Positions 16,850 to 29,878 of a stretch of DNA of 32,000 nucleotides are shown here, one piece after another; within the stretch, counting starts at the first letter, position 1; each line of letters starts with the position of its first letter. The stretch is from contig NZ_FUWK01000031.1 in the NCBI RefSeq assembly GCF_900167395.1, positions 1-32,000 of the forward strand. The letters are read 5' to 3'. Below the pieces are notes generated by a model. That model worked only from the letters and a program-made list of their open reading frames with translations, was not told the origin of the DNA and made no database searches. The translations under genes were made by a program, and so were the position numbers. This DNA comes from Nitrosomonas europaea (lineage in GTDB: Bacteria > Pseudomonadota > Gammaproteobacteria > Burkholderiales > Nitrosomonadaceae).

Positions 16850-16915
16850 ACGGTATCTCCTCGTGGTGAAAATATCAGTCTGGATCAGACAGAATGGATT
16901 GCATTTAATACTAAT

Positions 16916-16934
16916 AATAACAATTATCATTAAC
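16916..16934 (-). promoter_or_regulatory. weaker Fur box candidate in the divergent region upstream of the long DUF2325-like gene
   Basis: AATAACAATTATCATTAAC matches 14/19 positions of the Fur consensus. It lies 67-85 nt upstream of the ATG at 16849. Confidence 0.4.
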
Positions 16935-17004
16935 GTAATCAATTGTGTTGTGTATTGCAGCCGATTCTGCATGAATCATGTGGAGCTTCATTTGTACGGC
17001 GAGG

Positions 17005-17021
17005 TGCGACAATTTGTCGCA
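17005..17021 (+). promoter_or_regulatory. 17-bp perfect palindromic operator TGCGACAA-T-TTGTCGCA (copy 1 of 3)
   Basis: Perfect 8-1-8 dyad immediately followed by TTTCCA (17022-27), a 17-nt spacer and TATTCT (17045-50). It ends 48 nt before the propeller gene ATG at 17070. Confidence 0.6.
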
Positions 17022-17069
17022 TTTCCATCCTTTTTGGAATCGGTTATTCTCCGAATTTTTGCGTGAACC

Positions 17070-18311
17070 ATGAAGAAGTCGACCTATTCTTTCCCCACGC
17101 TGGCCGGATTCTTTCTCACACTCGCTTCTGTGGTTGCAATCGCAGCCGGGCCAGGTACCGGCGACCCAACTCAGCAACCGTCTGTCATGCAAGCCTCAAA
17201 GTCCCCAAAGACCGCACTTGCGGTGGGAGTAACACTGGATCAGGAAGGGCAGTTGTGGCTGGCAAAAGTGATTGATCAGCGCTTGCTGGTTTCCAGATCA
17301 GAAGACGATGGCAAGCATTTTTCCGAATCAGTGACGGTTACTCCTGTGCCGGAAAACATAGGCAATGATGGCGAAAATCGTCCCAAGATCCAGGTGGCAC
17401 GTGATGGCACCGTGCTGGTCACCTGGACGGAGCTGCTGGCGGAAAAATATGCCGGAAATATAAAGTTCTCGCGTTCGACCGATTCAGGTCGGACGTTCTC
17501 AGAGCCAATCGTTCTGAACGATGATGGCCGTGTGACCAGTCACCGCTTCGATTCCCTGGCAATCGACGGAAAAGGAAGGGTGGTGGTGGCCTGGCTGGAT
17601 GCCAGAGATCGTGATGCAGCGAGGGAAAAAGGGGAGGAGTTCAAGGGGGTCTCACTCTACAGCAGTCAGTCGTTCGACAATGGCGCGCACTTTGAGCCAA
17701 ACCGGCAAATTCATCAGCATACCTGCGAATGCTGCCGGACTGCGCTTACCTGGACCAGCGAGGGGCCGGTCGTGCTGCTGCGAAATATTTTCGGCACCAA
17801 TACCCGTGATTTTGCCGTGGCCAGCCTGGATAAAGTGGAAGAAGGTGTCAGAAGAGTCACCCGCGATGAGTGGCAGATCGACGCCTGCCCGCACAACGGT
17901 GGCAGTCTTGCGACAGATGGCAGGGGGCAATTGCATCTGACCTGGTTCACCAGCGGCACCGCTGCACAGGGGCAGTTCTATAAACGGATCAGCGGCAACC
18001 AGGAATCGGAACCCATGGCGCTGGGTGATATGGATGCGCAGCCCAACCATGCTGCAGTGGTGGCGCATGGTGAAACCGTCATCCTCACCTGGCGCGAATT
18101 TGACGGAAACGTGTATTCCGCAAAGATGATGTTTTCGAATGACGGTGGCGAAACCTGGAGTGAGCCATGGCGCCTGATGTTGTCTGCCGGCGCAAACGAT
18201 TACCCGGTACCACTCATCAGTGACAGTAAAGCTCTGGTTGTATGGAATACCGAAAATGAGGGTTTGCGGGTTTTGTCCGTTGAAAGAGTCATCAACCGAT
18301 CCGACGGCTGA
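17070..18311 (+). CDS. secreted BNR/Asp-box repeat beta-propeller (sialidase-fold-like) protein with a conserved CxCC...CPH motif
   Basis: Signal peptide MKKSTYSFPTLAGFFLTLASVVAIAA. Asp-box motifs SEDDGKHF, STDSGRTF, SFDNGAHF, SNDGGETW. HTCECCR and DACPHNGG are conserved in the paralog at 28146-29384. Confidence 0.8.
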   Translation: MKKSTYSFPTLAGFFLTLASVVAIAAGPGTGDPTQQPSVMQASKSPKTALAVGVTLDQEGQLWLAKVIDQRLLVSRSEDDGKHFSESVTVTPVPENIGNDGENRPKIQVARDGTVLVTWTELLAEKYAGNIKFSRSTDSGRTFSEPIVLNDDGRVTSHRFDSLAIDGKGRVVVAWLDARDRDAAREKGEEFKGVSLYSSQSFDNGAHFEPNRQIHQHTCECCRTALTWTSEGPVVLLRNIFGTNTRDFAVASLDKVEEGVRRVTRDEWQIDACPHNGGSLATDGRGQLHLTWFTSGTAAQGQFYKRISGNQESEPMALGDMDAQPNHAAVVAHGETVILTWREFDGNVYSAKMMFSNDGGETWSEPWRLMLSAGANDYPVPLISDSKALVVWNTENEGLRVLSVERVINRSDG

Positions 18312-18419
18312 GAATCTTTAAAACAATAATAAGCAGCAGGCGGCTTATGACATGGATCGCAATGGCATCAGGCGCTGCTGCAAATACTAATTACCAATAA
18401 AAATCGAAAGGATCAGACC

Positions 18420-20972
18420 ATGAAGCAGTTCCCTCTGGCACTGATTGGCCTGCTTTGCGCCTCATCAGCCTGGGCAGCTCAAGATGTCGAACAACAGAAA
18501 CAGTTTTCCCGCAAAAATCTTTCAACACAGGCAGACAACAGTTCAGACGGAATCCGGGTATCAGGCGCAAACGGGGAGCACGCAGGGGAGCAGTTGGCGC
18601 AAGCGGCGGACGAACAGGTGCAAACCGGTAAATCGAGCAATAGTGACAACCTGAATGAACAGAAAGAGAAGGATAGTGGTGAGCCGGCTGGCCAGAATGA
18701 AACTGTTTTCAGGGAAATGGTAATTACAGGTGAAATAGAGCGGGATTCGCACTTTACTTCGCCTTCGATGCGCGTAACCCGGGCGCAGGTCGAACAGCAG
18801 AATGCGCAAACTACCGAAGAAGTGCTCAAATACATGCCCAGCCTGCAAATACGTCAGCGCTACGTGGGCGATCCGAATGGTGTGTTGGGGATTCGCGGAG
18901 CCGATATGTTTTCAACTGCGCGCAGCATGGTTTATGCCGATGGTCTGCCGTTGCACAACTTTCTGCAGGCTTCTTTCAATGGTGCGCCGCGCTGGTCGCT
19001 GGTCGGTCCTAACGAAATCGACTCGGTTGATGTCGTTTATGGCCCTTTCTCGGCCGAGTACAGCGGCAACTCGATAGGGGGCGTTGCCAATATCAGAACG
19101 CGCATGCCGCACAAGCAGGAATTTTACTTTGAAGGCAGCCTGTTCATTCAGCCCTACAAGAATTACGGGGAGGATAAAGGAACATTCATTGGTGACCGGC
19201 AGTATTTTTCCTACGGCAACAGGATTCAGGACAAGTTTACGGTGTTCCTGGCTTACAACCGGCTGGAGGCTCAGGGTCAGCCAATGTCTTATTTTATTGA
19301 TAATACCGGGTTGTCCAACGTGCCTGGAGGAACACCGGTGACGGGGGGTATCAGGACACCGGATACGCGCGGTACACCCAGTATCATTTATGGTGATACC
19401 GGTCCCGAAAAAGTGAATACTCACTTGTTCAAGGGTAAATTCGGGTACGACATCACTTCCGATCTGCAGGCGTTGTTTACCGTGGCGTATGAAGAGCGTA
19501 CCCGCAACCAGAACCATCCGAGCAACTACCTGTATACGGCGAACGGGGATTATTTCTGGGGAGGGAATGCGCCTACCTGTAATTCGGTTGCCACCTGTTC
19601 GACTCCGGGTAATGCTTCTCTGGATGGCACACGCTTCGATGTGGTGCGCAGTGGTTTCGGTGAAAGTCGTGACAAGCGTGAGACGCTGAATCTGGGTTTG
19701 TCGCTGCGCGGTGCGCTGACGCCCGACTGGGATGTCGATACCACATTCAGCTATTTCGATGTGTTGAAGGATATTCGTGCGACGGCGTTTTTCAATCATG
19801 CCGATCCGGGCAATACCGGTGCCGGGCAATTGCAGGATTTCCGCAAATTCAACTGGTGGAATTACGATCTCAAGCTGAGTACGCCCATGCTGCTGGGTTA
19901 CGACAAACTGTCGTTTCTGGCCGGATACCATTTTGACCAGTACAACCTCAGTTTCCGGCAATATAGCCTGACCAGTTATGAAGATCTGACCCGGGGTGCA
20001 TTGCAGGCCAACCGCAATAATGATGGCCGCACATCGACTCATGCGATCTTTGCCCAATCCATGTTCCGCTTCATGCCGGACTGGGATATTACCGCCGGTG
20101 TGCGTCAGGAATGGTGGGAAGCAAGCAAGGGAGTCGCCTCCAATGTGGCCGTGCCCGATCGCACCGAAACAGCCACTTCTCCGAAGGTTTCACTGGGGTA
20201 TGAGCCTGGACAGTGGAAATTCCGCTATTCCTTCGGGCGTGCGCACCGTTTCCCGGTGATTGCAGAGCTTTTTCAGTCACTTGGTACACCTACCAGTATT
20301 CTGGTTGCGAATGCGACGCTCAAACCTGAAAATGGCGTGCATCATAATTTTATGATGGAGTACGGGTTACCGAAGGGTTATGTTCGTGTCAACGTATTTC
20401 GGGATGACATCAAGGACGCCATCCGCCAGATCACTTCCGCCTCGGGAGCACTTACAACCAGCGCTTTCCAGAATATCGGTGAAGTTGGTACAACCGGTGT
20501 GGAGCTGATCTTCGAACAGCGAAATATTCTGGGCTCACGGTTCGATTTTATGTTCAACGGTACCTGGATGAACTCAAAAGTGGAAGACGGGCCGGTCGTG
20601 AGATTTACCGAATCAACCGGCGTGCCTGCCAACTACAGTCTGACCGGGAAACAGGTCATTCGTCTGCCACACTGGCGAGTCAATGTTTTCGGTACTTACC
20701 ATGTGACGGATGCCTGGGATGTTTCCCTGTCCGGCCGCTATACCAGCGATTCCTATAATGATCCTGATAACAGGGACTATAAGAACAACGTATTCGGTGC
20801 CCAGAGCGATTTCTTCTTCATGGATTTCAAGACCAGCTACCGGTATCGGTTCAACAACGGGCTGAAAAGCCGATTCTCATTCGGTATCAGCAACCTCAAC
20901 AACGACAAGGCCTGGGTATTTCATCCCTATCCGCAGCGTACCTATCTGCTCGAAGCTGCGTTCAGTTATTGA
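18420..20972 (+). CDS. TonB-dependent outer-membrane receptor with a long low-complexity N-terminal extension
   Basis: 850 aa. Signal peptide ending SSAWA. About 75 aa of Q/E/N/S/G-rich sequence, then plug motifs (VLKYMPSLQIRQR, GIRGA, VYADGLPL, VDVVYGPFSAEYSGNSIGGV) and a barrel ending AAFSY. Confidence 0.9.
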   Translation: MKQFPLALIGLLCASSAWAAQDVEQQKQFSRKNLSTQADNSSDGIRVSGANGEHAGEQLAQAADEQVQTGKSSNSDNLNEQKEKDSGEPAGQNETVFREMVITGEIERDSHFTSPSMRVTRAQVEQQNAQTTEEVLKYMPSLQIRQRYVGDPNGVLGIRGADMFSTARSMVYADGLPLHNFLQASFNGAPRWSLVGPNEIDSVDVVYGPFSAEYSGNSIGGVANIRTRMPHKQEFYFEGSLFIQPYKNYGEDKGTFIGDRQYFSYGNRIQDKFTVFLAYNRLEAQGQPMSYFIDNTGLSNVPGGTPVTGGIRTPDTRGTPSIIYGDTGPEKVNTHLFKGKFGYDITSDLQALFTVAYEERTRNQNHPSNYLYTANGDYFWGGNAPTCNSVATCSTPGNASLDGTRFDVVRSGFGESRDKRETLNLGLSLRGALTPDWDVDTTFSYFDVLKDIRATAFFNHADPGNTGAGQLQDFRKFNWWNYDLKLSTPMLLGYDKLSFLAGYHFDQYNLSFRQYSLTSYEDLTRGALQANRNNDGRTSTHAIFAQSMFRFMPDWDITAGVRQEWWEASKGVASNVAVPDRTETATSPKVSLGYEPGQWKFRYSFGRAHRFPVIAELFQSLGTPTSILVANATLKPENGVHHNFMMEYGLPKGYVRVNVFRDDIKDAIRQITSASGALTTSAFQNIGEVGTTGVELIFEQRNILGSRFDFMFNGTWMNSKVEDGPVVRFTESTGVPANYSLTGKQVIRLPHWRVNVFGTYHVTDAWDVSLSGRYTSDSYNDPDNRDYKNNVFGAQSDFFFMDFKTSYRYRFNNGLKSRFSFGISNLNNDKAWVFHPYPQRTYLLEAAFSY

Positions 20973-21184
20973 AGTACAGGTGTTTTTCTGCCCGATTATG
21001 TGATCTGAAACATCAGTAAAAATATCTGCAGAGTGTGCTTACGTAATTGAAGCTACCGAGCTGTTAATGTGGGTTCGGTAGGATGAGGTTAAAGTATTGT
21101 GTTCGTGATGCTATGATGAGCCGACCCGATGCCGAAGAAAACCCCCGAGGTGGCGTCGGGTCTGCTGGTTTCAGGAGGAAACAC

Positions 21185-21463
21185 ATGAATCGCGATCGGG
21201 TTTTGGCAGTATTGCGCCATAGTAAACCTATGTTGGCCAGTCGGTACGGTGTTCGTCGTTTGGCTTTGTTCGGCTCCACAGCACGTGATGACAGTGATGT
21301 TGATGTGCTGATGGTATTCGATGGTGTGGCAAGTGCAGCGCGTTATTTTGGCGTTCAGTTCCACCTGGAAGATGCATTGGGTTGCTCGGTAGATTTGGTA
21401 TCCGAGAAGGCGCTGCGGCCGGAGCTGCGTCCTTTCATCGAAAAAGAAGCGGTTTATGTTTGA
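21185..21463 (+). CDS. mntA: MntA-type nucleotidyltransferase (antitoxin of a HepT/MntA type VII TA pair)
   Basis: 92 aa. AGGAGGA SD. LALFGSTARDDSDVDVLMVFD (GS...DxD nucleotidyltransferase motif) and a C-terminal VDLVSEKALRPELRPFIEKEAVYV. ATGTTTGA start/stop overlap with the downstream DUF86 frame. Confidence 0.85.
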   Translation: MNRDRVLAVLRHSKPMLASRYGVRRLALFGSTARDDSDVDVLMVFDGVASAARYFGVQFHLEDALGCSVDLVSEKALRPELRPFIEKEAVYV

Positions 21464-23486: not shown

Positions 23487-23503
23487 TGCGACAATTTGTC
23501 ACA
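23487..23503 (+). promoter_or_regulatory. 17-bp palindromic operator (copy 2 of 3; one mismatch, TGCGACAATTTGTCACA)
   Basis: Immediately followed by TTGTTA (23504-09), a 17-nt spacer and TATGAT (23527-32), upstream of the TBDR gene. Confidence 0.6.
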
Positions 23504-23647
23504 TTGTTATGCCCTTTCTCCCGCTTTATGATGGGTGCCCTGCAGTAACTGCAATCACTTTAAGGGTTTCATAACAGGGATAAAAACATGAAGGGAACAA
23601 AAAGGTTTGAGCAATCGCGACAACATCTGCTCAAGGCTGGGGATGCC

Positions 23648-25711
23648 ATGATCAGAAAACCGCTGGCGGTTGCGATGGTGGGTGTGCTGGCGGGCATGAC
23701 ATCGGTATGGGCGCAGGCAGAAAGTAAAAAGGAACCGGTGCAACTGGAAACAATCGAGGTCGTGGCATCCGGGCAGGGGTCGCTTACGGTTCCAACGCTG
23801 GTTGAGGCGCAGCATGAAATGCGCAAAATCCCGGGCGGAGCAAATATCATCGACAGCGAATCTTATGCCAATGGCCGGGGTTCGACACTGCAGGATGCGC
23901 TGGGGTATTCGCCGGGAGTGTTTGTTCAATCCCGTTTCGGTGCCGAGGAAGCGCGTCTGTCAATTCGCGGTTCCGGCATCCAGCGTTTCTTTCACTTGCG
24001 CGGCATCAAGATTCTGCAGGATGGTTCGCGGGTGAATCTGGCTGATGGTGGCGCGGATTTTCAGGTGATCGAGCCACTGGCAGCACGCTATATCGAAGTT
24101 TATCGGGGTGCCAATGCATTGCAGTATGGATCGACCACGCTGGGTGGTGCGATCAATTTCGTCACGCCCACCGGCTACGATGCTGAACGTTTCCGCGCAC
24201 GTGGTGAGGCAGGCAGCTTTGGTTATAACCGCCTGATGCTTTCTTCCGGTGGTGTGCATGGTTCTCTGGATTATTTTGCCAGTGTTTCCCGCTACAGTCA
24301 GGATGGTTTCCGTGACTGGTCGGAGCAGGAAAACTGGCGCATGTTCAGCAATGCCGGGTATCGAATCACGCCCGATCTGGAAACCCGTTTTTACCTGACC
24401 TATACCAAAACCAATTCACAATTGCCAGGCGAGCTGACCAAAGCAGAACTGAAAGACAACCCGAAGCAGGCAAATTTCTTTAACAGCAATATAGCGCGGT
24501 ACAAGCGGGATTTTGATTTGATCCGCGTGGCCAATCGTACTGTGATGAAATTGGGTGAGGCCCAGCAACTGGAATTTTCCGCATTCTATGCGCATAAAAA
24601 AGTATGGCACCCGATTTATGTGGTGATGGAGCAGCCTTCGCATGATTACGGCCTTGGGTTGCGCTATATCAACGAAATGCCGATTGCCGGCTGGCGTAAC
24701 CGGTTTGTGGCCGGTTTCGAGCCAAGCTGGGGCAAGGTGATGGATAACCAGTTCGTTAATATCAATGGTGAGGCTGGTCCGCGAATTCACAAATATGATC
24801 AGGATGTCAGCAGTTATACGGTGTATGGAGAGAATCAGTTTTACCTGCTGCCGGAACTTGCACTGGTGGTGGGTGCCCAGTACACCAACATGACACTCAA
24901 ACAGAAAGATCTGCATACGGGTGATCCGCGGCAGAAGAAAAACTACGAACGCTTCACCCCCAAGGCAGGACTCATCTATGACCTGAATCCGGAAATTCAA
25001 TTCTTCACCAACGTCAGTACCAGTTTCGAGCCACCCAGTTTTTCCGAGCTGGCCAGTTGGCAGGCGACACCGGTACTGGCCAGTGCCCAGCGCGCACTGA
25101 CCTTCGAAGTGGGAAGCCGGGGCCGTTTTGGTATCGCCGAATGGGATGTTGCATTTTATCGCTCACATGTGCGCAATGAATTGCTTGCCCGCGTGGATCC
25201 AGTGTCCCGTTTCCCGATAGGAATGGTCAATGCGGATAAAACCGTGCATCAGGGAGTGGAATTGGGTCTGGATATGGAACTGGCAAAAATGCTTTACCTG
25301 CGCCAGATGTATACATTCAGCGATTTCAAGTTTGATGGCGACCCGCTTTTCGGAAACAACCAGCTGGCCGGTATTCCGCGCCATTTCTACAAGGCGGAGC
25401 TGCTCTATCGCCATCCTGCCGGCTATTATGCCGGTCCGAACGTGGAATGGTCACCCGAGAAGTATTATGTGGATCATGCCAATACGTTGTCTGTCGATAC
25501 CTATGCGCTGCTTGGATTCAAGCTGGGTAAGCGCAACAAAACCGGCTTTTCCTGGTTTGTCGAGGGGCGTAACCTGACTAACCAGAAATATGCGGCGACG
25601 GTTTCCGTAACCGACATCGCGGGGGTTGGTGCCTTTGGTGGCGCAAACTCGGCCTTGTTCTTCCCGGGAGATGGCCGCTCCTTCTTTGCTGGTCTGGAGT
25701 ATCGGATGTAG
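23648..25711 (+). CDS. TonB-dependent outer-membrane receptor (tandem paralog 1); alternative upstream in-frame ATG at 23588
   Basis: GGGGA SD upstream of the ATG at 23648, giving the signal peptide MIRKPLAVAMVGVLAGMTSVWAQA. Plug motifs LETIEVV, LSIRGSG, RGIKILQDG, EVYRGANALQYGSTTLGGAINFV. Barrel ends GLEYRM. Confidence 0.9.
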   Translation: MIRKPLAVAMVGVLAGMTSVWAQAESKKEPVQLETIEVVASGQGSLTVPTLVEAQHEMRKIPGGANIIDSESYANGRGSTLQDALGYSPGVFVQSRFGAEEARLSIRGSGIQRFFHLRGIKILQDGSRVNLADGGADFQVIEPLAARYIEVYRGANALQYGSTTLGGAINFVTPTGYDAERFRARGEAGSFGYNRLMLSSGGVHGSLDYFASVSRYSQDGFRDWSEQENWRMFSNAGYRITPDLETRFYLTYTKTNSQLPGELTKAELKDNPKQANFFNSNIARYKRDFDLIRVANRTVMKLGEAQQLEFSAFYAHKKVWHPIYVVMEQPSHDYGLGLRYINEMPIAGWRNRFVAGFEPSWGKVMDNQFVNINGEAGPRIHKYDQDVSSYTVYGENQFYLLPELALVVGAQYTNMTLKQKDLHTGDPRQKKNYERFTPKAGLIYDLNPEIQFFTNVSTSFEPPSFSELASWQATPVLASAQRALTFEVGSRGRFGIAEWDVAFYRSHVRNELLARVDPVSRFPIGMVNADKTVHQGVELGLDMELAKMLYLRQMYTFSDFKFDGDPLFGNNQLAGIPRHFYKAELLYRHPAGYYAGPNVEWSPEKYYVDHANTLSVDTYALLGFKLGKRNKTGFSWFVEGRNLTNQKYAATVSVTDIAGVGAFGGANSALFFPGDGRSFFAGLEYRM

Positions 25712-25847: not shown

Positions 25848-25864
25848 TGCGACAATTTGTCGCA
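25848..25864 (+). promoter_or_regulatory. 17-bp perfect palindromic operator TGCGACAA-T-TTGTCGCA (copy 3 of 3)
   Basis: Immediately followed by TTGTGA (25865-70), a 17-nt spacer and TAAGAT (25888-93), upstream of TBDR paralog 2. Confidence 0.6.
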
Positions 25865-25998
25865 TTGTGATGTCATTCTGCCAGGCTTAAGATTGGCAGC
25901 GTGCAGTAATTGCCAATACTAATAATTCCAGAGGGAAGAAAATGAAGGAAAAGAAGGTTAAACAAGCTGGGCTTTATGAGTCATCGGGTGGAGAAATC

Positions 25999-28068
25999 AT
26001 GGCCCGGAAGCCGCTTGTCATTGTGCTGGCAGGTGTATTGGCAGCTATGGCAGCGCCATTGGCGCAAGCTCATGAGGTTGACGAGCCAGTACAGCTTGAA
26101 ACAATAAAAGTGACTACATCTAAGGATGATTTACCTCTTACTGTGCCAAGTCTGCCGGAAGTGCAACAGAAAATGCGTCAGATTCCAGGGGGCGCGAATG
26201 TGATTGACAGCGAATCTTATGCTACCGGCCGTGCCTCGACGTTGCAGGATGCATTGGGTTATTCACCGGGTGTGTTTGTTCAACCTCGTTTTGGTGCTGA
26301 AGAAGCACGCCTGTCAATTCGTGGTTCCGGTATTCAGCGTACTTTCCATATGCGCGGTATCAAACTGTTGCAGGATGGCTCCCGGCTGAATCTGGCCGAT
26401 GGCGGAGGGGATTTTCAGGCAATCGAGCCGCTGGCCGCACGCTATATCGAGGTATACCGGGGAGGTAATGCGCTGCAGTTTGGATCGACCACACTGGGTG
26501 GTGCGATCAATTTCGTTACCCCTACCGGTTATGATGCCGAACGTTTCCGTGCGCGTGGTGAGGCAGGCAGTTTTGGTTATAACCGTCTGATGCTCTCTTC
26601 CGGCGGTGTGCATGGCTCGCTGGATTATTTTGCCAGCGTTTCCCGCTACAGCCAGGATGGTTTCCGTGACTGGTCAGAGCAGGAAAACTGGCGCATGTTC
26701 AGTAATGTGGGTTATCGCGTCAACTCCGATCTGGAAACCCGTTTTTATCTCACTTATACCAAAACTGATTCACAATTGCCGGGTAACCTGACCAAGGCAC
26801 AGTTGAGAGCCAATCCCAAACAAGCGAATGCGGTTAGTCTGGCTGGTCGGCAGAAGCGGGATTTTGATCTGATCCGGGTGGCCAATCGCACTGTGCTTAA
26901 GCTGGGAAATAGCCAGCAACTGGAATTCTCCGCATTCTATTCACACAAGAAGTTGTGGCATCCGATCTTTCAGGTGCTGGATCAGCCATCGCATGATTAT
27001 GGCCTGGGGTTGCGCTATATAAATGAGATGCCGATTGCTGGCTGGCGCAACCGTTTTGTAGTTGGTTTCGAGCCGAGCTGGGGCACTGTTATGGATAATC
27101 GCTTCTTCAATAATGGTGGTAGAGCGGGTGCACGTACAGCCAAGTTTGATCAGAGTGCCAGCACTTATGACGTTTATGCGGAAGATCAGCTGTACGTATT
27201 GCCAGAACTGTCACTGGTTGTGGGTGCGCAGTACAGTTATACGACACGTAAACAAAAGGATCTGTTTGGAGCAGGCGCCCAGGATAGAAGCAAGAACTAC
27301 CAGCGCTTCACTCCCAAAGCAGGATTGATTTATGAGCTGAATCCGCATATTCAGTTTTTCAGTAACGTCAGTACCAGTTTTGAGCCTCCCAGTTTTTCCG
27401 AACTGACTGCCGGGCCGGTGGTTGCTCCGGTATTTGCAAAAGCTCAACGTGCGATCACATTTGAAGTTGGTAGCCGAGGTCATTTCGGTATAGCCGAATG
27501 GGATGTGGCGCTGTATCGGGCGCATGTACGTAATGAGTTGCTTGCCCGAGTGGATCCTATTACCAGTTCTTCACTGGGTACGGTCAATGCGGATAAAACA
27601 GTGCATCAGGGGGTTGAACTGGGCCTTGATATCGAGCTGGTGAAAATGTTCTATTTGCGCCAGATGTACCTGTTCAATGATTTCAAATTCGATGGGGATG
27701 CTTCTTTCGGTAATAATCAGTTAGCCGGCATCCCACGTCATTTCTACAAAGCGGAACTGACTTACCGTCATGCTGATGGATACTACGCCGGTCCGAATGT
27801 AGAATGGTCACCTCAGAAATACTATGTGGACCATGCCAATACGGTATATGCCAATTCCTATGCGCTGCTGGGTTTCAAAATCGGTAAACGGAGTAAGAGT
27901 GGATTTTCCTGGTTTGCAGAGGCACGTAACCTGACTGATCAGAAATACGCAGCTACTACAGGCGTAACAGATGTGGTTAAGTACAATAATGCGGGTGTTC
28001 TTCAGGATCAATTTTTCCTTCCAGGAGATGGACGCTCTTTCTTCGCGGGTCTCGAATATCGGATGTAG
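25999..28068 (+). CDS. TonB-dependent outer-membrane receptor (tandem paralog 2); alternative upstream in-frame ATG at 25942
   Basis: GGAGA SD upstream of the ATG at 25999, giving the signal peptide MARKPLVIVLAGVLAAMAAPLAQA. Collinear with and highly similar to the 23648-25711 product. Ends GLEYRM. Confidence 0.9.
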   Translation: MARKPLVIVLAGVLAAMAAPLAQAHEVDEPVQLETIKVTTSKDDLPLTVPSLPEVQQKMRQIPGGANVIDSESYATGRASTLQDALGYSPGVFVQPRFGAEEARLSIRGSGIQRTFHMRGIKLLQDGSRLNLADGGGDFQAIEPLAARYIEVYRGGNALQFGSTTLGGAINFVTPTGYDAERFRARGEAGSFGYNRLMLSSGGVHGSLDYFASVSRYSQDGFRDWSEQENWRMFSNVGYRVNSDLETRFYLTYTKTDSQLPGNLTKAQLRANPKQANAVSLAGRQKRDFDLIRVANRTVLKLGNSQQLEFSAFYSHKKLWHPIFQVLDQPSHDYGLGLRYINEMPIAGWRNRFVVGFEPSWGTVMDNRFFNNGGRAGARTAKFDQSASTYDVYAEDQLYVLPELSLVVGAQYSYTTRKQKDLFGAGAQDRSKNYQRFTPKAGLIYELNPHIQFFSNVSTSFEPPSFSELTAGPVVAPVFAKAQRAITFEVGSRGHFGIAEWDVALYRAHVRNELLARVDPITSSSLGTVNADKTVHQGVELGLDIELVKMFYLRQMYLFNDFKFDGDASFGNNQLAGIPRHFYKAELTYRHADGYYAGPNVEWSPQKYYVDHANTVYANSYALLGFKIGKRSKSGFSWFAEARNLTDQKYAATTGVTDVVKYNNAGVLQDQFFLPGDGRSFFAGLEYRM

Positions 28069-28145
28069 AAATAATGATGGGAGTGGTGAGCTCATAAACA
28101 AGCCATCTTCAGGTTTGATTGGCGATTAATTTCAAGGGATCGACG

Positions 28146-29384
28146 ATGTCAGTAAAACATTTCATTACAGCCGTTTCACTTGCTATGGTTTCCACAGTAA
28201 TTCCCCTGACCGTGACTGCTGAACAACATGCGCATGATGCTAAATCAGCAAAGCCCGGCCATGATATGAATAAAATGTGGGCGGAAATGCGCACAAGAGC
28301 AGTCGGCATGGCTGTTTCCGTAGCGGCTGATGAAAAAGGGAAATTGTGGCTGGTTCGTATGCAGGATGGCCATATCCGGGTAAGTCATTCGGAAGATGGC
28401 GGCAAGCATTTTTCTGAAGGTGTAACGGTAAACCCGCAACCTGAAGCGATTCTTGCAGAAAACCAGAACCGGCCGAAGATCGCGGTGCGTAACGGGGTGA
28501 TCGCAGTAACCTGGGTACAGGCGCTGCCGAAGGTGTTTGCCGGGAATATCCGCTTTGCCCGTTCTGTCGATGGTGGTCGTACTTTTTCCGAGCCGGTAAC
28601 TGTGAACGATGATCAGGGCGAAATCAGCCATGGTTTCAGTGCCTTGACACTGGGTGACAATGGCCGTGTGACATTGACCTGGTTCGACGGGCGTGAACGT
28701 GATGCAGCTGATAAGGGTGGGCAGAAGTATGTTGGCACCACGGTTTACTATGCAACGTCGGAAGACGGCGGAGCGAGTTTTTCTGCGAATCGCAAGTTGG
28801 CTGACCATGCCTGCGAATGCTGCAGAATCGGCATGACGCTCGATTCTGATGGGGTACCGGTTGTGTTCTGGCGGCATGTGTTCGAGGGCAGCATGCGTGA
28901 TTTCGCGCTGGCACGGCTGGATTCGCAACCCAAGGTGTTGCGGGCCAGTGAGGATGGTTGGGAAATCAATGCCTGTCCTCATCATGGCGGCGACATTGCA
29001 GTGGATGAAGCCGGTAGCCGCCATCTGGCGTGGTTTACCGGGAATCCGCAGAATCCCGGATTGTTTTACCGGCGTGCTGACGGTGAGAATATGACCGCAC
29101 CGCACGCATTTGGTGACCTTGATTTTCAGCCGGGTTACCCAGCTGTATTTGCGTATGGAAAGAAGGTTTATCTGGTCTGGCGCGAATTTGATGGCAATAA
29201 TTATCAATTGATGGCCTCCGTTTCGGCTGATCGTGGCGATACCTGGTCAGCAGCTCGTGCTGTGGCAACGACCGGTGGTGCAGCCGACCTGCCAGTATTT
29301 GTAGTCGGTGCACAGAAACCACTCGTCGTGTGGAACAGTGCCAGAGATGGAGTGCGCTTCTTTAATGCAGAGGGGGATTTATGA
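28146..29384 (+). CDS. secreted BNR/Asp-box repeat beta-propeller protein with the CxCC...CPH motif (paralog of 17070-18311)
   Basis: Starts MSVKHFITAVSLAMVSTVIPLTVTA at the ATG at 28146 (the track start at 28119 is a TTG). Asp boxes SEDGGKHF, SVDGGRTF, SEDGGASF, SADRGDTW. HACECCR and NACPHHGG. Confidence 0.8.
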   Translation: MSVKHFITAVSLAMVSTVIPLTVTAEQHAHDAKSAKPGHDMNKMWAEMRTRAVGMAVSVAADEKGKLWLVRMQDGHIRVSHSEDGGKHFSEGVTVNPQPEAILAENQNRPKIAVRNGVIAVTWVQALPKVFAGNIRFARSVDGGRTFSEPVTVNDDQGEISHGFSALTLGDNGRVTLTWFDGRERDAADKGGQKYVGTTVYYATSEDGGASFSANRKLADHACECCRIGMTLDSDGVPVVFWRHVFEGSMRDFALARLDSQPKVLRASEDGWEINACPHHGGDIAVDEAGSRHLAWFTGNPQNPGLFYRRADGENMTAPHAFGDLDFQPGYPAVFAYGKKVYLVWREFDGNNYQLMASVSADRGDTWSAARAVATTGGAADLPVFVVGAQKPLVVWNSARDGVRFFNAEGDL

Positions 29385-29878
29385 TGCGTCGTTTACTGTT
29401 TATCTGGCTGTTGACGATAGCCGGGGTTGCATCGGCGACCGAGGGTGTACGTCCGTTTGTACTCGGAAGTATGACGCAGATTCAGGAAGAGCATGCAGGC
29501 AAACCTTTCGTACTGTTTCTCTGGTCGCTGACATGTACTTACTGTCCAACTGAACTGAAAATGCTTGGTGAATTCAAGCAGCAGCATCCTGATCTGAATC
29601 TGGTGCTGATTGCGGCGGATACGCCGGATGATGAGCCGGAGATCGTTTCTCATCTTGCTGATTACGGGTTGAACAAGGTCGAGCGGTGGGTGTTTGCCGA
29701 GGATATGCCGGAACGCCTGCGTTTTGAGATCGACCGGCGCTGGTATGGCGAGGTGCCGCGCACCTATTTTTATGATCAGAGCCATCAGCGTGAAGCCAAG
29801 ACCGGGCTGGTCGGCCAGGAATATGTCAAGAGTTGGCTGGCGCGTGTCGGTATGGATGCTTCGTCCGCAAGCAAGTGA
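29381..29878 (+). CDS. periplasmic thioredoxin-fold thiol:disulfide oxidoreductase (TlpA/ResA-like)
   Basis: Signal peptide MMRRLLFIWLLTIAGVASA. WSLTCTYCP CxxC active site (29534-29545). ATGA overlap with the propeller gene stop. Confidence 0.8.
   Translation: MMRRLLFIWLLTIAGVASATEGVRPFVLGSMTQIQEEHAGKPFVLFLWSLTCTYCPTELKMLGEFKQQHPDLNLVLIAADTPDDEPEIVSHLADYGLNKVERWVFAEDMPERLRFEIDRRWYGEVPRTYFYDQSHQREAKTGLVGQEYVKSWLARVGMDASSASK

Follow-up and report, generated by a model that had tools for sequence, protein, structure and literature searches.

Which regulator reads the palindrome that marks three promoters in a 32,000-nucleotide stretch of the Nitrosomonas europaea genome, and what do the genes behind those promoters have in common? 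The stretch, hereafter the window, comprises positions 1 to 32,000 of contig NZ_FUWK01000031.1; a BNR-propeller protein encoded in it is identical in N. europaea ATCC 19718 (AL954747.1, approximately 1.66-1.68 Mb), and the window genes are NE1529-NE1537 of that strain. The original prediction, made from the letters of the window, held that the palindrome, a 17-bp dyad with two 8-bp arms and one central nucleotide (8-1-8), is a candidate for an undescribed operator. The evidence presented here points to a known class of operator instead: with a probability of about 0.68, the dyads are sites for a response regulator of the RegA family (RegA/PrrA/RegR/ActR/RoxR), centred at approximately -44 and likely activating redox-controlled uptake operons. 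A pattern search of the window recovered two perfect copies of TGCGACAATTTGTCGCA and one copy with a single mismatch (G to A at 23501). These sites and their plus-strand promoters are the following.

17005-17021: dyad site 1, TGCGACAATTTGTCGCA, a perfect 8-1-8 dyad at approximately -52 to -36 of the NE1537 promoter; proposed RegA-family box
17022-17050 (+): promoter core of site 1, with -35 hexamer TTTCCA at 17022-17027, a spacer of 17 nucleotides (nt) and -10 hexamer TATTCT at 17045-17050; predicted start at about 17057, ATG at 17070
23487-23503: dyad site 2, TGCGACAATTTGTCACA, one mismatch
23504-23532 (+): promoter core of site 2, with -35 hexamer TTGTTA at 23504-23509, a 17-nt spacer and -10 hexamer TATGAT at 23527-23532; predicted start at about 23539, ATG at 23588
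25848-25864: dyad site 3, TGCGACAATTTGTCGCA, perfect
25865-25893 (+): promoter core of site 3, with -35 hexamer TTGTGA at 25865-25870, a 17-nt spacer and -10 hexamer TAAGAT at 25888-25893; predicted start at about 25900, ATG at 25942

Pattern search and reading of the sequence confirmed to the base what had been described for all three copies, namely a dyad followed with zero gap by a -35 hexamer, a 17-nt spacer and a -10 hexamer, and Pfam matches confirmed that each copy precedes a gene for a BNR propeller or a TonB-dependent receptor. No further match to TGCGACAATTTGTCGCA at up to 3 mismatches was found in the 32-kb window; shuffled sequence yielded a mean of 0.17 matches, and none of 100 shuffles gave three. 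With the -10 hexamer taken as -12 to -7, the dyad centre falls at approximately -44 and its span at -52 to -36, and the start codons lie 19-55 nt beyond the -10 hexamer. The -35 elements had been called weak, but each agrees with TTGACA at 4 of 6 positions and is not especially weak; the -10 hexamers agree with their consensus at 4-5 of 6. When the three regions are aligned, their likeness is limited to GRTGCGACAATTTGTCRCATT and the -10 area.

The same elements stand out among close relatives. Four other Nitrosomonas genomes encode BNR orthologues 74-88% identical to NE1530, and in all four the dyad is retained upstream of the orthologous operons (five exact copies, one with a single mismatch and one degenerate copy at a place where the BNR gene has been lost). 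The equivalent of site 1 is exact in loci L007 and L009 and present as a 3-mismatch copy in L008; the one-mismatch variant of site 2 is also present in L010; and the equivalent of site 3, upstream of the orthologous receptor, is kept in L007, L008 and L009 and carries one mismatch in L010. Invariant in these alignments are the dyad plus CATTG, the -10 hexamer and a handful of -35 positions, amid other intergenic DNA that has diverged. Such a pattern is a classical phylogenetic footprint of an operator with its promoter.

The exact 17-mer was also sought in a reference collection of 596 Gb with one genome per species. Among the genomes covered, which did not include N. europaea, at least 120 loci were recovered, where approximately 69 hits would be expected by chance in the whole collection (own arithmetic). 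Among the matches listed, approximately 104 of 120 loci belong to Proteobacteria, almost all of them Beta- or Gammaproteobacteria, and 16 come from other phyla. The hosts include Nitrosomonas, Nitrosospira, Gallionella, Sideroxydans, Azonexus, Methylophilaceae, Competibacter and Methylococcales as well as Porticoccaceae, Kangiella, Rheinheimera, Thiomicrorhabdus, Marinomonas and one member of the Rhodospirillaceae. A flank profile of 105 proteobacterial occurrences, oriented by the central T, revealed TT directly after the dyad in 57 sites, a TTGnCA-like hexamer at +17 to +22, and a TAnnnT hexamer that starts at exactly +40 in 47 sites and within +39 to +41 in 62, against a background of 1.4% per position. 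No enriched TAnnnT offset was found on the mirror side of the dyad in these 105 sites, nor in the 16 occurrences from other phyla. All three window sites obey the +40 rule, their -10 hexamers starting 40 nt from the start of the dyad. The geometry proposed from the window, a fixed dyad centre near -44, is thereby borne out, and it is a general property of this promoter class. Variants of the dyad occur before more distant operons: in Dechloromonas, CGCGACAATTTGTCGCA and CGCGACAATTTGCCACA precede two receptor genes and keep the -35/-10 spacing, one of the receptors being the first gene of a receptor-BNR-thioredoxin-TonB operon, and in a Sterolibacteriaceae genome GCGCGACAATATGCCGCA precedes a receptor-BNR-thioredoxin-TonB-ExbBD operon.

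A palindrome can also be a structural or selfish repeat, either an element like the repetitive extragenic palindromic (REP) sequences or the hairpin of an intrinsic terminator, and a simple terminator scan indeed scores site 1 (17001-17035) as terminator-like, with an 11-pair stem and a T-run, while sites 2 and 3 lie downstream of preceding genes. Such repeats would be dispersed between convergent genes or at the ends of genes, with their structure kept more than their letters. Yet the sequence itself, and not just its pairing, is invariant across Beta- and Gammaproteobacteria, it stands at a fixed distance upstream of the -10 hexamer in one orientation, site 1 is located in a divergent promoter region, and the 32-kb window has just three copies, each of them preceding one of a set of related genes. 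A repeat is hardly credible on these grounds, and the terminator score at 17001-17035 is likely a false positive that automated annotation might repeat. The conserved sequence and geometry instead support a cis-regulatory operator that defines a regulon, as had been supposed.

To which operator class does the dyad belong? It had been judged unlike a list of known operators, but that list held metal sensors only and omitted response regulators. The core of the dyad is GCGAC-N5-GTCGC. Alphaproteobacterial RegA-family sites are variable in spacing and placement. Motifs for RegA, PrrA and RegR are quoted in an earlier study (PMC5506826). Compared with them, GCGACAATTTGTCGC agrees with every position of the RegA motif SSGNVRDNHYSNCSS, and it fits the PrrA motif YSCGGC(5)GWCRMA with one mismatch and the RegR box GNGRCRTTNNGNCGC with one mismatch, 10 of 11 specified positions agreeing. 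When RegR positions 7-8 are relaxed to W, the three sites are the only matches in the window, where 0.4 would be expected. Sites mapped for RegA of Rhodobacter capsulatus by chromatin immunoprecipitation (ChIP) sequencing include those at cydA (GTGACAATTTGTCCC) and ccoN (GCGACCGTTCGTCGC), also CGGACAAAATGTCGC, GCGTCAATATGGCGC and others (PMC5359404); the window dyad differs from the cydA site at 2 of 15 positions. Sites of RegA and PrrA in R. capsulatus and Rhodobacter sphaeroides have the inverted repeat GCGNC-N5-GNCGC in common with the dyad. The box of Bradyrhizobium japonicum RegR (Emmerich et al. 2000, quoted in PMC5506826 and PMC4064962) is a 15-nt imperfect inverted repeat, and the RegR regulon includes the copper-homeostasis genes copCAB (PMC4064962).

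There are differences as well. RegR boxes are imperfect and have differently spaced half-sites (PMC4064962), and alphaproteobacterial sites in general are degenerate and dissimilar (PMC5506826), whereas the dyad described here is a perfect 17-bp palindrome that abuts the -35 hexamer and is locked at approximately -44. The targets differ too, being outer-membrane uptake and copper-chaperone genes here and photosynthesis, nitrogen fixation and oxidase genes in Rhodobacter, although SCO1/SenC is also part of the dyad regulon and senC is classically co-transcribed with regA (PMC5359404). The operator is assigned to a known class, as a RegA-family box of near-ideal consensus; what appears to be new is that the box is fixed at -44, that it is so widely conserved and that ammonia oxidisers use it for genes of TonB-dependent uptake and copper handling. 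A literature search on two half-site strings returned primer coincidences only.

Other operator classes were compared and set aside. The Fur/Zur/PerR box, an AT-rich 19-bp GATAATGATAATCATTATC or a 7-1-7 repeat (TGATAAT-N-ATTATCA), does not match the half-site GCGACAA. A promoter of the MerR type (CueR, ZntR) has its dyad within a spacer of 19-20 nt, between the -35 and -10 hexamers; all three window dyads precede the -35 hexamer, and their spacers measure 17 nt. The cop box of CopY/BlaI regulators has the consensus KACA-N2-TGTA; the inner core of the dyad, GACA-ATT-TGTC, has a 3-nt spacing and other flanks. A CRP/FNR site and LacI- or GntR-type operators were rejected on both sequence and geometry.

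The genes that adjoin the dyad in other genomes point to the same regulator as the motif comparison. After receptors and thioredoxins, the most recurrent neighbours in the listed loci are families of histidine kinases and response regulators. The kinase has approximately 430 residues and in most cases the quinone-site motif GGxxNPF; the response regulator has approximately 180 residues and ends in a Fis-type helix-turn-helix, ...NISATARALGMHRRTLQRKLAKRP. The pair, or regB alone at a locus edge, was found by tblastn in at least 12 of the listed 8-kb loci, where approximately 0.2 loci would be expected to carry the pair beside a dyad by chance (own arithmetic: 8 kb of a genome of approximately 3.5 Mb). 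In 8 of the 12, no more than 120 bp separate the dyad from the regBA operon, and in Gallionella (L210) the box-promoter drives regB itself. Both proteins were assigned to the RegB/RegA family because their top NCBIfam matches are ActS/PrrB/RegB (225 bits) and ActR/PrrA/RegA (164 bits), homologues are named RegA and RegB in public sources, and PDB 3rqi can be aligned with the whole of the regulator and the DNA-binding effector domain of R. sphaeroides PrrA (1umq) with its C-terminal domain. It is the presence of these genes beside the identical 17-mer, together with the fit to published RegA/PrrA/RegR boxes and the resemblance to RegA ChIP sites, that speaks against an undescribed operator. For N. 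europaea the assignment rests on an operator-promoter module identical to that of the regBA-carrying genomes. Candidatus Nitrotoga, a relative within the Gallionellaceae, has a RegB/RegA pair (PMC8415719). As a separate observation, the streamlined 1.3-Mb genome of Methylophilaceae bacterium LSUCC0401 retains regB-regA (L207, 1777-3660), with an exact 17-mer 10 bp past the regA stop codon and a TonB-dependent receptor right after it.

What, then, does the module drive? Open reading frames were called in all 120 listed loci and clustered, representatives were annotated, and genes were scored as downstream in promoter orientation. Directly downstream are TonB-dependent receptors in at least 21 loci; a 249-residue Nitrosomonas-specific secreted family in at least 5; a TlpA-like thioredoxin in at least 4, from Nitrosospira and related Betaproteobacteria and mostly followed by TonB-ExbB-ExbD; SCO1/SenC, MbnP and BNR propellers in at least 3 each; an amidohydrolase in at least 3, followed by a fused MFS/spermidine-synthase-like protein where the locus continues; and MetA-like outer-membrane proteins in at least 2. 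Single cases among the matches listed are DUF1775 (YcnI-like), PepSY_TM, a FecI-FecR-receptor operon of Nitrosomonas eutropha, a multicopper-oxidase-like gene in Nitrosomonas nitrosa and the regB of Gallionella. Genes for PCuAC copper chaperones (at least 7 loci) and MbnH (at least 5) lie nearby in the same loci. The recurrent themes are outer-membrane uptake and periplasmic copper handling, and the genes for respiration and cuproenzyme assembly (SCO1/SenC, MbnP, DUF1775, regB) were seen in genomes other than that of N. europaea. Cytochrome P460 was considered as a target in two Nitrosomonas loci (L252 and L239) and rejected, the box-promoter pointing away from the gene.

Ammonia oxidisers depend on copper enzymes, among them ammonia monooxygenase, NirK, nitrosocyanin and haem-copper oxidases. 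Beyond Fur, the regulation of metal uptake in these organisms is little known. For N. europaea we infer binding by RegA, the sign of regulation, its signal and the transported substrate in the following way. A RegA-family dimer, each subunit with a receiver domain and a Fis-type helix-turn-helix, would occupy each dyad, its partner being the membrane kinase RegB, which would read the redox state of the quinone pool and the respiratory chain. Phosphorylated RegA on the dyad, abutting the sigma-70 -35 hexamer, would most likely aid RNA polymerase and so raise transcription of NE1537-NE1536, NE1532 and NE1531-NE1529. In Beta- and Gammaproteobacteria the same module would drive genes for TonB-dependent receptors, for TonB-ExbBD and for copper chaperones, SCO1/SenC and MbnP among them. 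Low oxygen, or haem-copper oxidases poor in copper, would impair electron flow and thereby switch on uptake and cuproenzyme-assembly genes; the regulon would plausibly supply metal cofactors, above all copper, to respiratory enzymes under such conditions. Several properties of the family are established in the literature. GGxxNPF and a reactive cysteine allow RegB to sense how reduced the quinone pool is (PMC8191878). Copper is bound by R. capsulatus RegA (PMC9147068), cioAB is a gene pair activated by RoxR (cited in PMC5506826), and RegA acts as activator, repressor or anti-repressor depending on the promoter (PMC5506826).

A close functional parallel is Methylomonas sp. DH-1, a gammaproteobacterium dependent on a copper monooxygenase, in which RegB/RegA controls a TonB-dependent receptor, tonB-exbBD and feo (PMC13274454). 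The first two, whose expression needs RegA, are the gene classes that the dyad precedes in the window as well as in Nitrosospira and Methylococcales loci. The Methylomonas study defined no binding motif and read the regulon as one of iron uptake; upon deletion of regA, messenger RNA (mRNA) of the TonB-dependent receptor and tonB-exbBD fell to 3-23% of wild type (PMC13274454).

Several observations weigh against control of these operons by RegB/RegA. By tblastn on individual loci, the pair was found in 0 of approximately 30 Nitrosomonadaceae loci; none was found in the N. europaea window or in the flank to its left, in line with the earlier remark that no regulator is encoded beside the N. europaea sites. 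Among the matches listed, those of a RegA profile search were topped by Halomonas-type proteins and those of a search with Gallionella RegB came from Gallionella only, Nitrosomonas not being reached; the gene names were not found in a transcriptome supplement, and a literature search found no paper linking Nitrosomonas with RegB. The beta- and gammaproteobacterial pair scores under the NCBIfam equivalog cut-offs (225 versus 350 bits and 164 versus 250 bits). The RegA motif is degenerate, with 30 matches in the window against 18 expected, so that the fit alone is weak evidence; since published motifs are of this kind, the match is strong only in combination with the regBA genes next to the dyad. 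The receptors of N. europaea are similar to E. coli YncD/PqqU and unlike OprC/NosA, which are copper receptors. In Methylomonas, RegA was undetected at the receptor and tonB promoters by ChIP with quantitative PCR (PMC13274454). In N. europaea chemostats, mRNA of NE1529-NE1536 was nearly equal in ammonia-limited and oxygen-limited growth, and NE1537 alone rose, by 2.6-fold (PMC6967387 supplement). Finally, the -35 and -10 hexamers are usable ones and leave room for repression by occlusion.

Might another dimeric regulator read the dyad in Nitrosomonas, either a metal-sensing repressor or an unknown factor? The lack of RegB/RegA in the Nitrosomonadaceae loci examined would agree with this, as would a regulon of metal-uptake genes and the 8-1-8 form, which recalls the 7-1-7 repeats of Fur-family operators. 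Two Fur paralogues of N. europaea are without an assigned box (PMC3050691), and an uncharacterised Fur-family paralogue such as NE0730 would be a candidate. However, the 17-mer and its geometry are identical where regBA adjoins, and a second regulator of the same specificity would be unparsimonious; the dyad has little sequence in common with Fur, Zur and PerR half-sites; the canonical Fur box of the window is a separate element at 16913-16931; and no Fur-family or other small helix-turn-helix gene is recurrent beside the dyad among the matches listed. A different regulator is accordingly judged distinctly unlikely. The DUF2325 proteins, which had been offered as the candidate regulators nearby, were rejected: they belong to the haem operon that has the Fur box, and theirs is not one of the recurrent neighbour families of the dyad in the listed loci.

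The sign of regulation could also be the reverse, with RegA, perhaps in its unphosphorylated form, blocking RNA polymerase and transcription rising by derepression when RegA leaves. Hexamers of this quality (-35 at 4/6, -10 at 4-5/6) with 17-nt spacers could work without an activator, and the TTGnCA-like -35 element is kept across the 105 sites; RegA represses some Rhodobacter targets (PMC5359404, PMC5506826), and the N. europaea transcripts were low as well as steady in the two chemostat conditions (PMC6967387 supplement). Against this, 47 of 105 unrelated promoters, all in one orientation, have precisely the same distance from dyad to -10 hexamer, as would be expected for a polymerase contact on one face of the helix and not for simple occlusion, and deletion of regA lowers receptor and tonB mRNA in Methylomonas (PMC13274454). 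Repression by RegA is therefore held to be unlikely. Activation is favoured because of the rigid geometry, the single orientation and the fall of receptor and tonB-exbBD mRNA in the Methylomonas deletion strain. The closest architectural precedents are activators of the class II type, such as lambda cI at PRM and CRP/FNR at -41.5, whose dimer sites lie just upstream of or overlap the -35 hexamer. Like the dyad, they keep a fixed distance to the -35 hexamer and strict phase to the -10 hexamer; the dyad differs from CRP/FNR sites in an unrelated sequence, a centre at approximately -44 instead of -41.5 and a retained -35 hexamer.

If the boxes are true RegA sites, NE1529-NE1537 would answer to the respiratory redox state and not to a classical metal sensor, which would make it possible to test how nitrifiers control the acquisition of metals. 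A perfect palindrome that holds the same place in over 100 promoters would further provide a handle for reconstructing RegB/RegA regulons in Beta- and Gammaproteobacteria, and the same palindrome could probe how RegA contacts RNA polymerase. A more far-reaching reading is offered tentatively, and is doubtful as a whole: a rigid module, tying RegB/RegA to the supply of copper and metals for respiratory and monooxygenase enzymes, in which a perfect box at -44 with a sigma-70 promoter defines a regulon conserved in Beta- and Gammaproteobacteria and makes RegB/RegA in effect a sensor of copper sufficiency via electron flow, the receptor-BNR-thioredoxin operons form an uncharacterised uptake system of ammonia oxidisers for a metal, possibly copper, and the 17-mer is a clear RegA consensus. 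Motif discovery failed in Acidithiobacillus (PMC5506826); if the copper-supply reading is true, the 17-mer would give the clear RegA consensus that was missed in the studies of Alphaproteobacteria and Acidithiobacillus.

The genes behind the three sites in N. europaea are listed here.

17070-18311 (+): NE1537, BNR propeller (Pfam); first gene of the site 1 operon (17070-20972)
18420-20972 (+): NE1536, TonB-dependent receptor; second gene of the site 1 operon
23588-25711 (+): NE1532, TonB-dependent receptor of a YncD/PqqU-like subfamily; downstream of site 2
25942-28068 (+): NE1531, TonB-dependent receptor; first gene of the site 3 operon (25942-29878)
28146-29384 (+): NE1530, BNR propeller with CECCR and ACPH motifs; site 3 operon
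29381-29878 (+): NE1529, periplasmic AhpC/TSA-like thioredoxin-fold protein with a CTYC motif; site 3 operon

NE1531 and NE1532 are paralogues with 76% identity. They were considered as copper receptors of the OprC/NosA type, which was rejected, the nearest characterised relative being YncD/PqqU (E. coli YncD/PqqU is also the closest solved relative of NE1531). Because the receptors are YncD/PqqU-like, a copper role of the NE1529-NE1537 operons would follow only from the regulon in other genomes. The BNR paralogues NE1537 and NE1530 are 46% identical to each other, have invariant HxCECCR and ACPHxGG motifs in common, and matched no solved structure by sequence; NE1529 has a signal-peptide-like N-terminus and a CxxC active site (CTYC). 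These residues suggest a periplasmic cysteine-based site for a metal or cofactor that would be held reduced by a TlpA-like partner. No study of NE1529-NE1537 was found in the literature, in which only the neighbouring NE1538-NE1543 operon is mentioned.

This neighbour is divergent from NE1537 (locus tags from PMC10781756) and encodes a DUF2325 protein, a CbiX-like protein, a haem receptor, HemP, a second DUF2325 protein and a multicopper oxidase. It had been stated that the dyad promoters lack a convincing Fur box, but a canonical one, AATAATAACAATTATCATT, occupies 16913-16931, between the divergent genes NE1538 and NE1537 and at 74 bp upstream from dyad site 1, where it overlaps the predicted minus-strand promoter (TTGATT-17-TATTAT) of the divergent haem operon. 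The box is largely kept in three other Nitrosomonas genomes, and NE1537 could be exposed to both the Fur-box and the dyad inputs.

Further observations concern dyad-driven genes in relatives. In N. eutropha BJ4 (L191, 498-514) the box-promoter precedes an operon of a FecI-type sigma factor, FecR, a receptor and PepSY_TM, and in Nitrosomonas sp. HPC101 (L185, 2115-2131) it directly precedes a PepSY_TM gene; a redox response regulator may thus stand above an extracytoplasmic-function sigma cascade in the N. europaea/N. eutropha lineage. The Nitrosomonas-specific cluster driven by the dyad (L135, L156, L163, L167, L158, L219, L224 and L235) comprises the 249-residue secreted protein, in which HTRLE...GHxCGD forms an N-terminal motif and Pfam found no match, together with another unmatched protein of 157 residues, a TlpA-like thioredoxin and an outer-membrane protein of the DUF3570 family. 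Often the cluster diverges from the amidohydrolase gene and the fused MFS/spermidine-synthase-like gene, with a second dyad nearby in some loci. In a Sterolibacteriaceae locus (L013, 6845-6905), dense and overlapping dyad-like half-sites (GCGGCCAATTGCCGCA, TGCGGCGACATGTCGCA and GCGGCAATTTGTCC) have a divergent Sel1-repeat gene on one side and, on the other, an operon that encodes a receptor, SCO1, an ABC transporter and a thioredoxin; this cluster may represent several regulator sites in tandem.

Within the window, a short conserved TGCAGTAAYTGC occurs just past the -10 hexamer in the predicted 5' leaders of the paralogues NE1532 and NE1531 (23541-23553 and 25902-25914). It is only partly retained in other Nitrosomonas species and could be a leader hairpin or a mere duplication remnant. 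Between the NE1536 receptor and an M18 aminopeptidase lie a gene for an MNT-type nucleotidyltransferase (21083-21463) and then short HepT-like open reading frames, to approximately 21800; the stretch, missing at this place in 3 of 4 related Nitrosomonas loci that cover it, is apparently a decayed toxin-antitoxin pair. A scan of viral contigs for GCGACAANTTGTCGC recovered two copies each in several (L050, L073 and L082, also L028 and L067), 567-593 bp apart in three of them, and these paired copies could be either a phage operator pair or chance occurrences.

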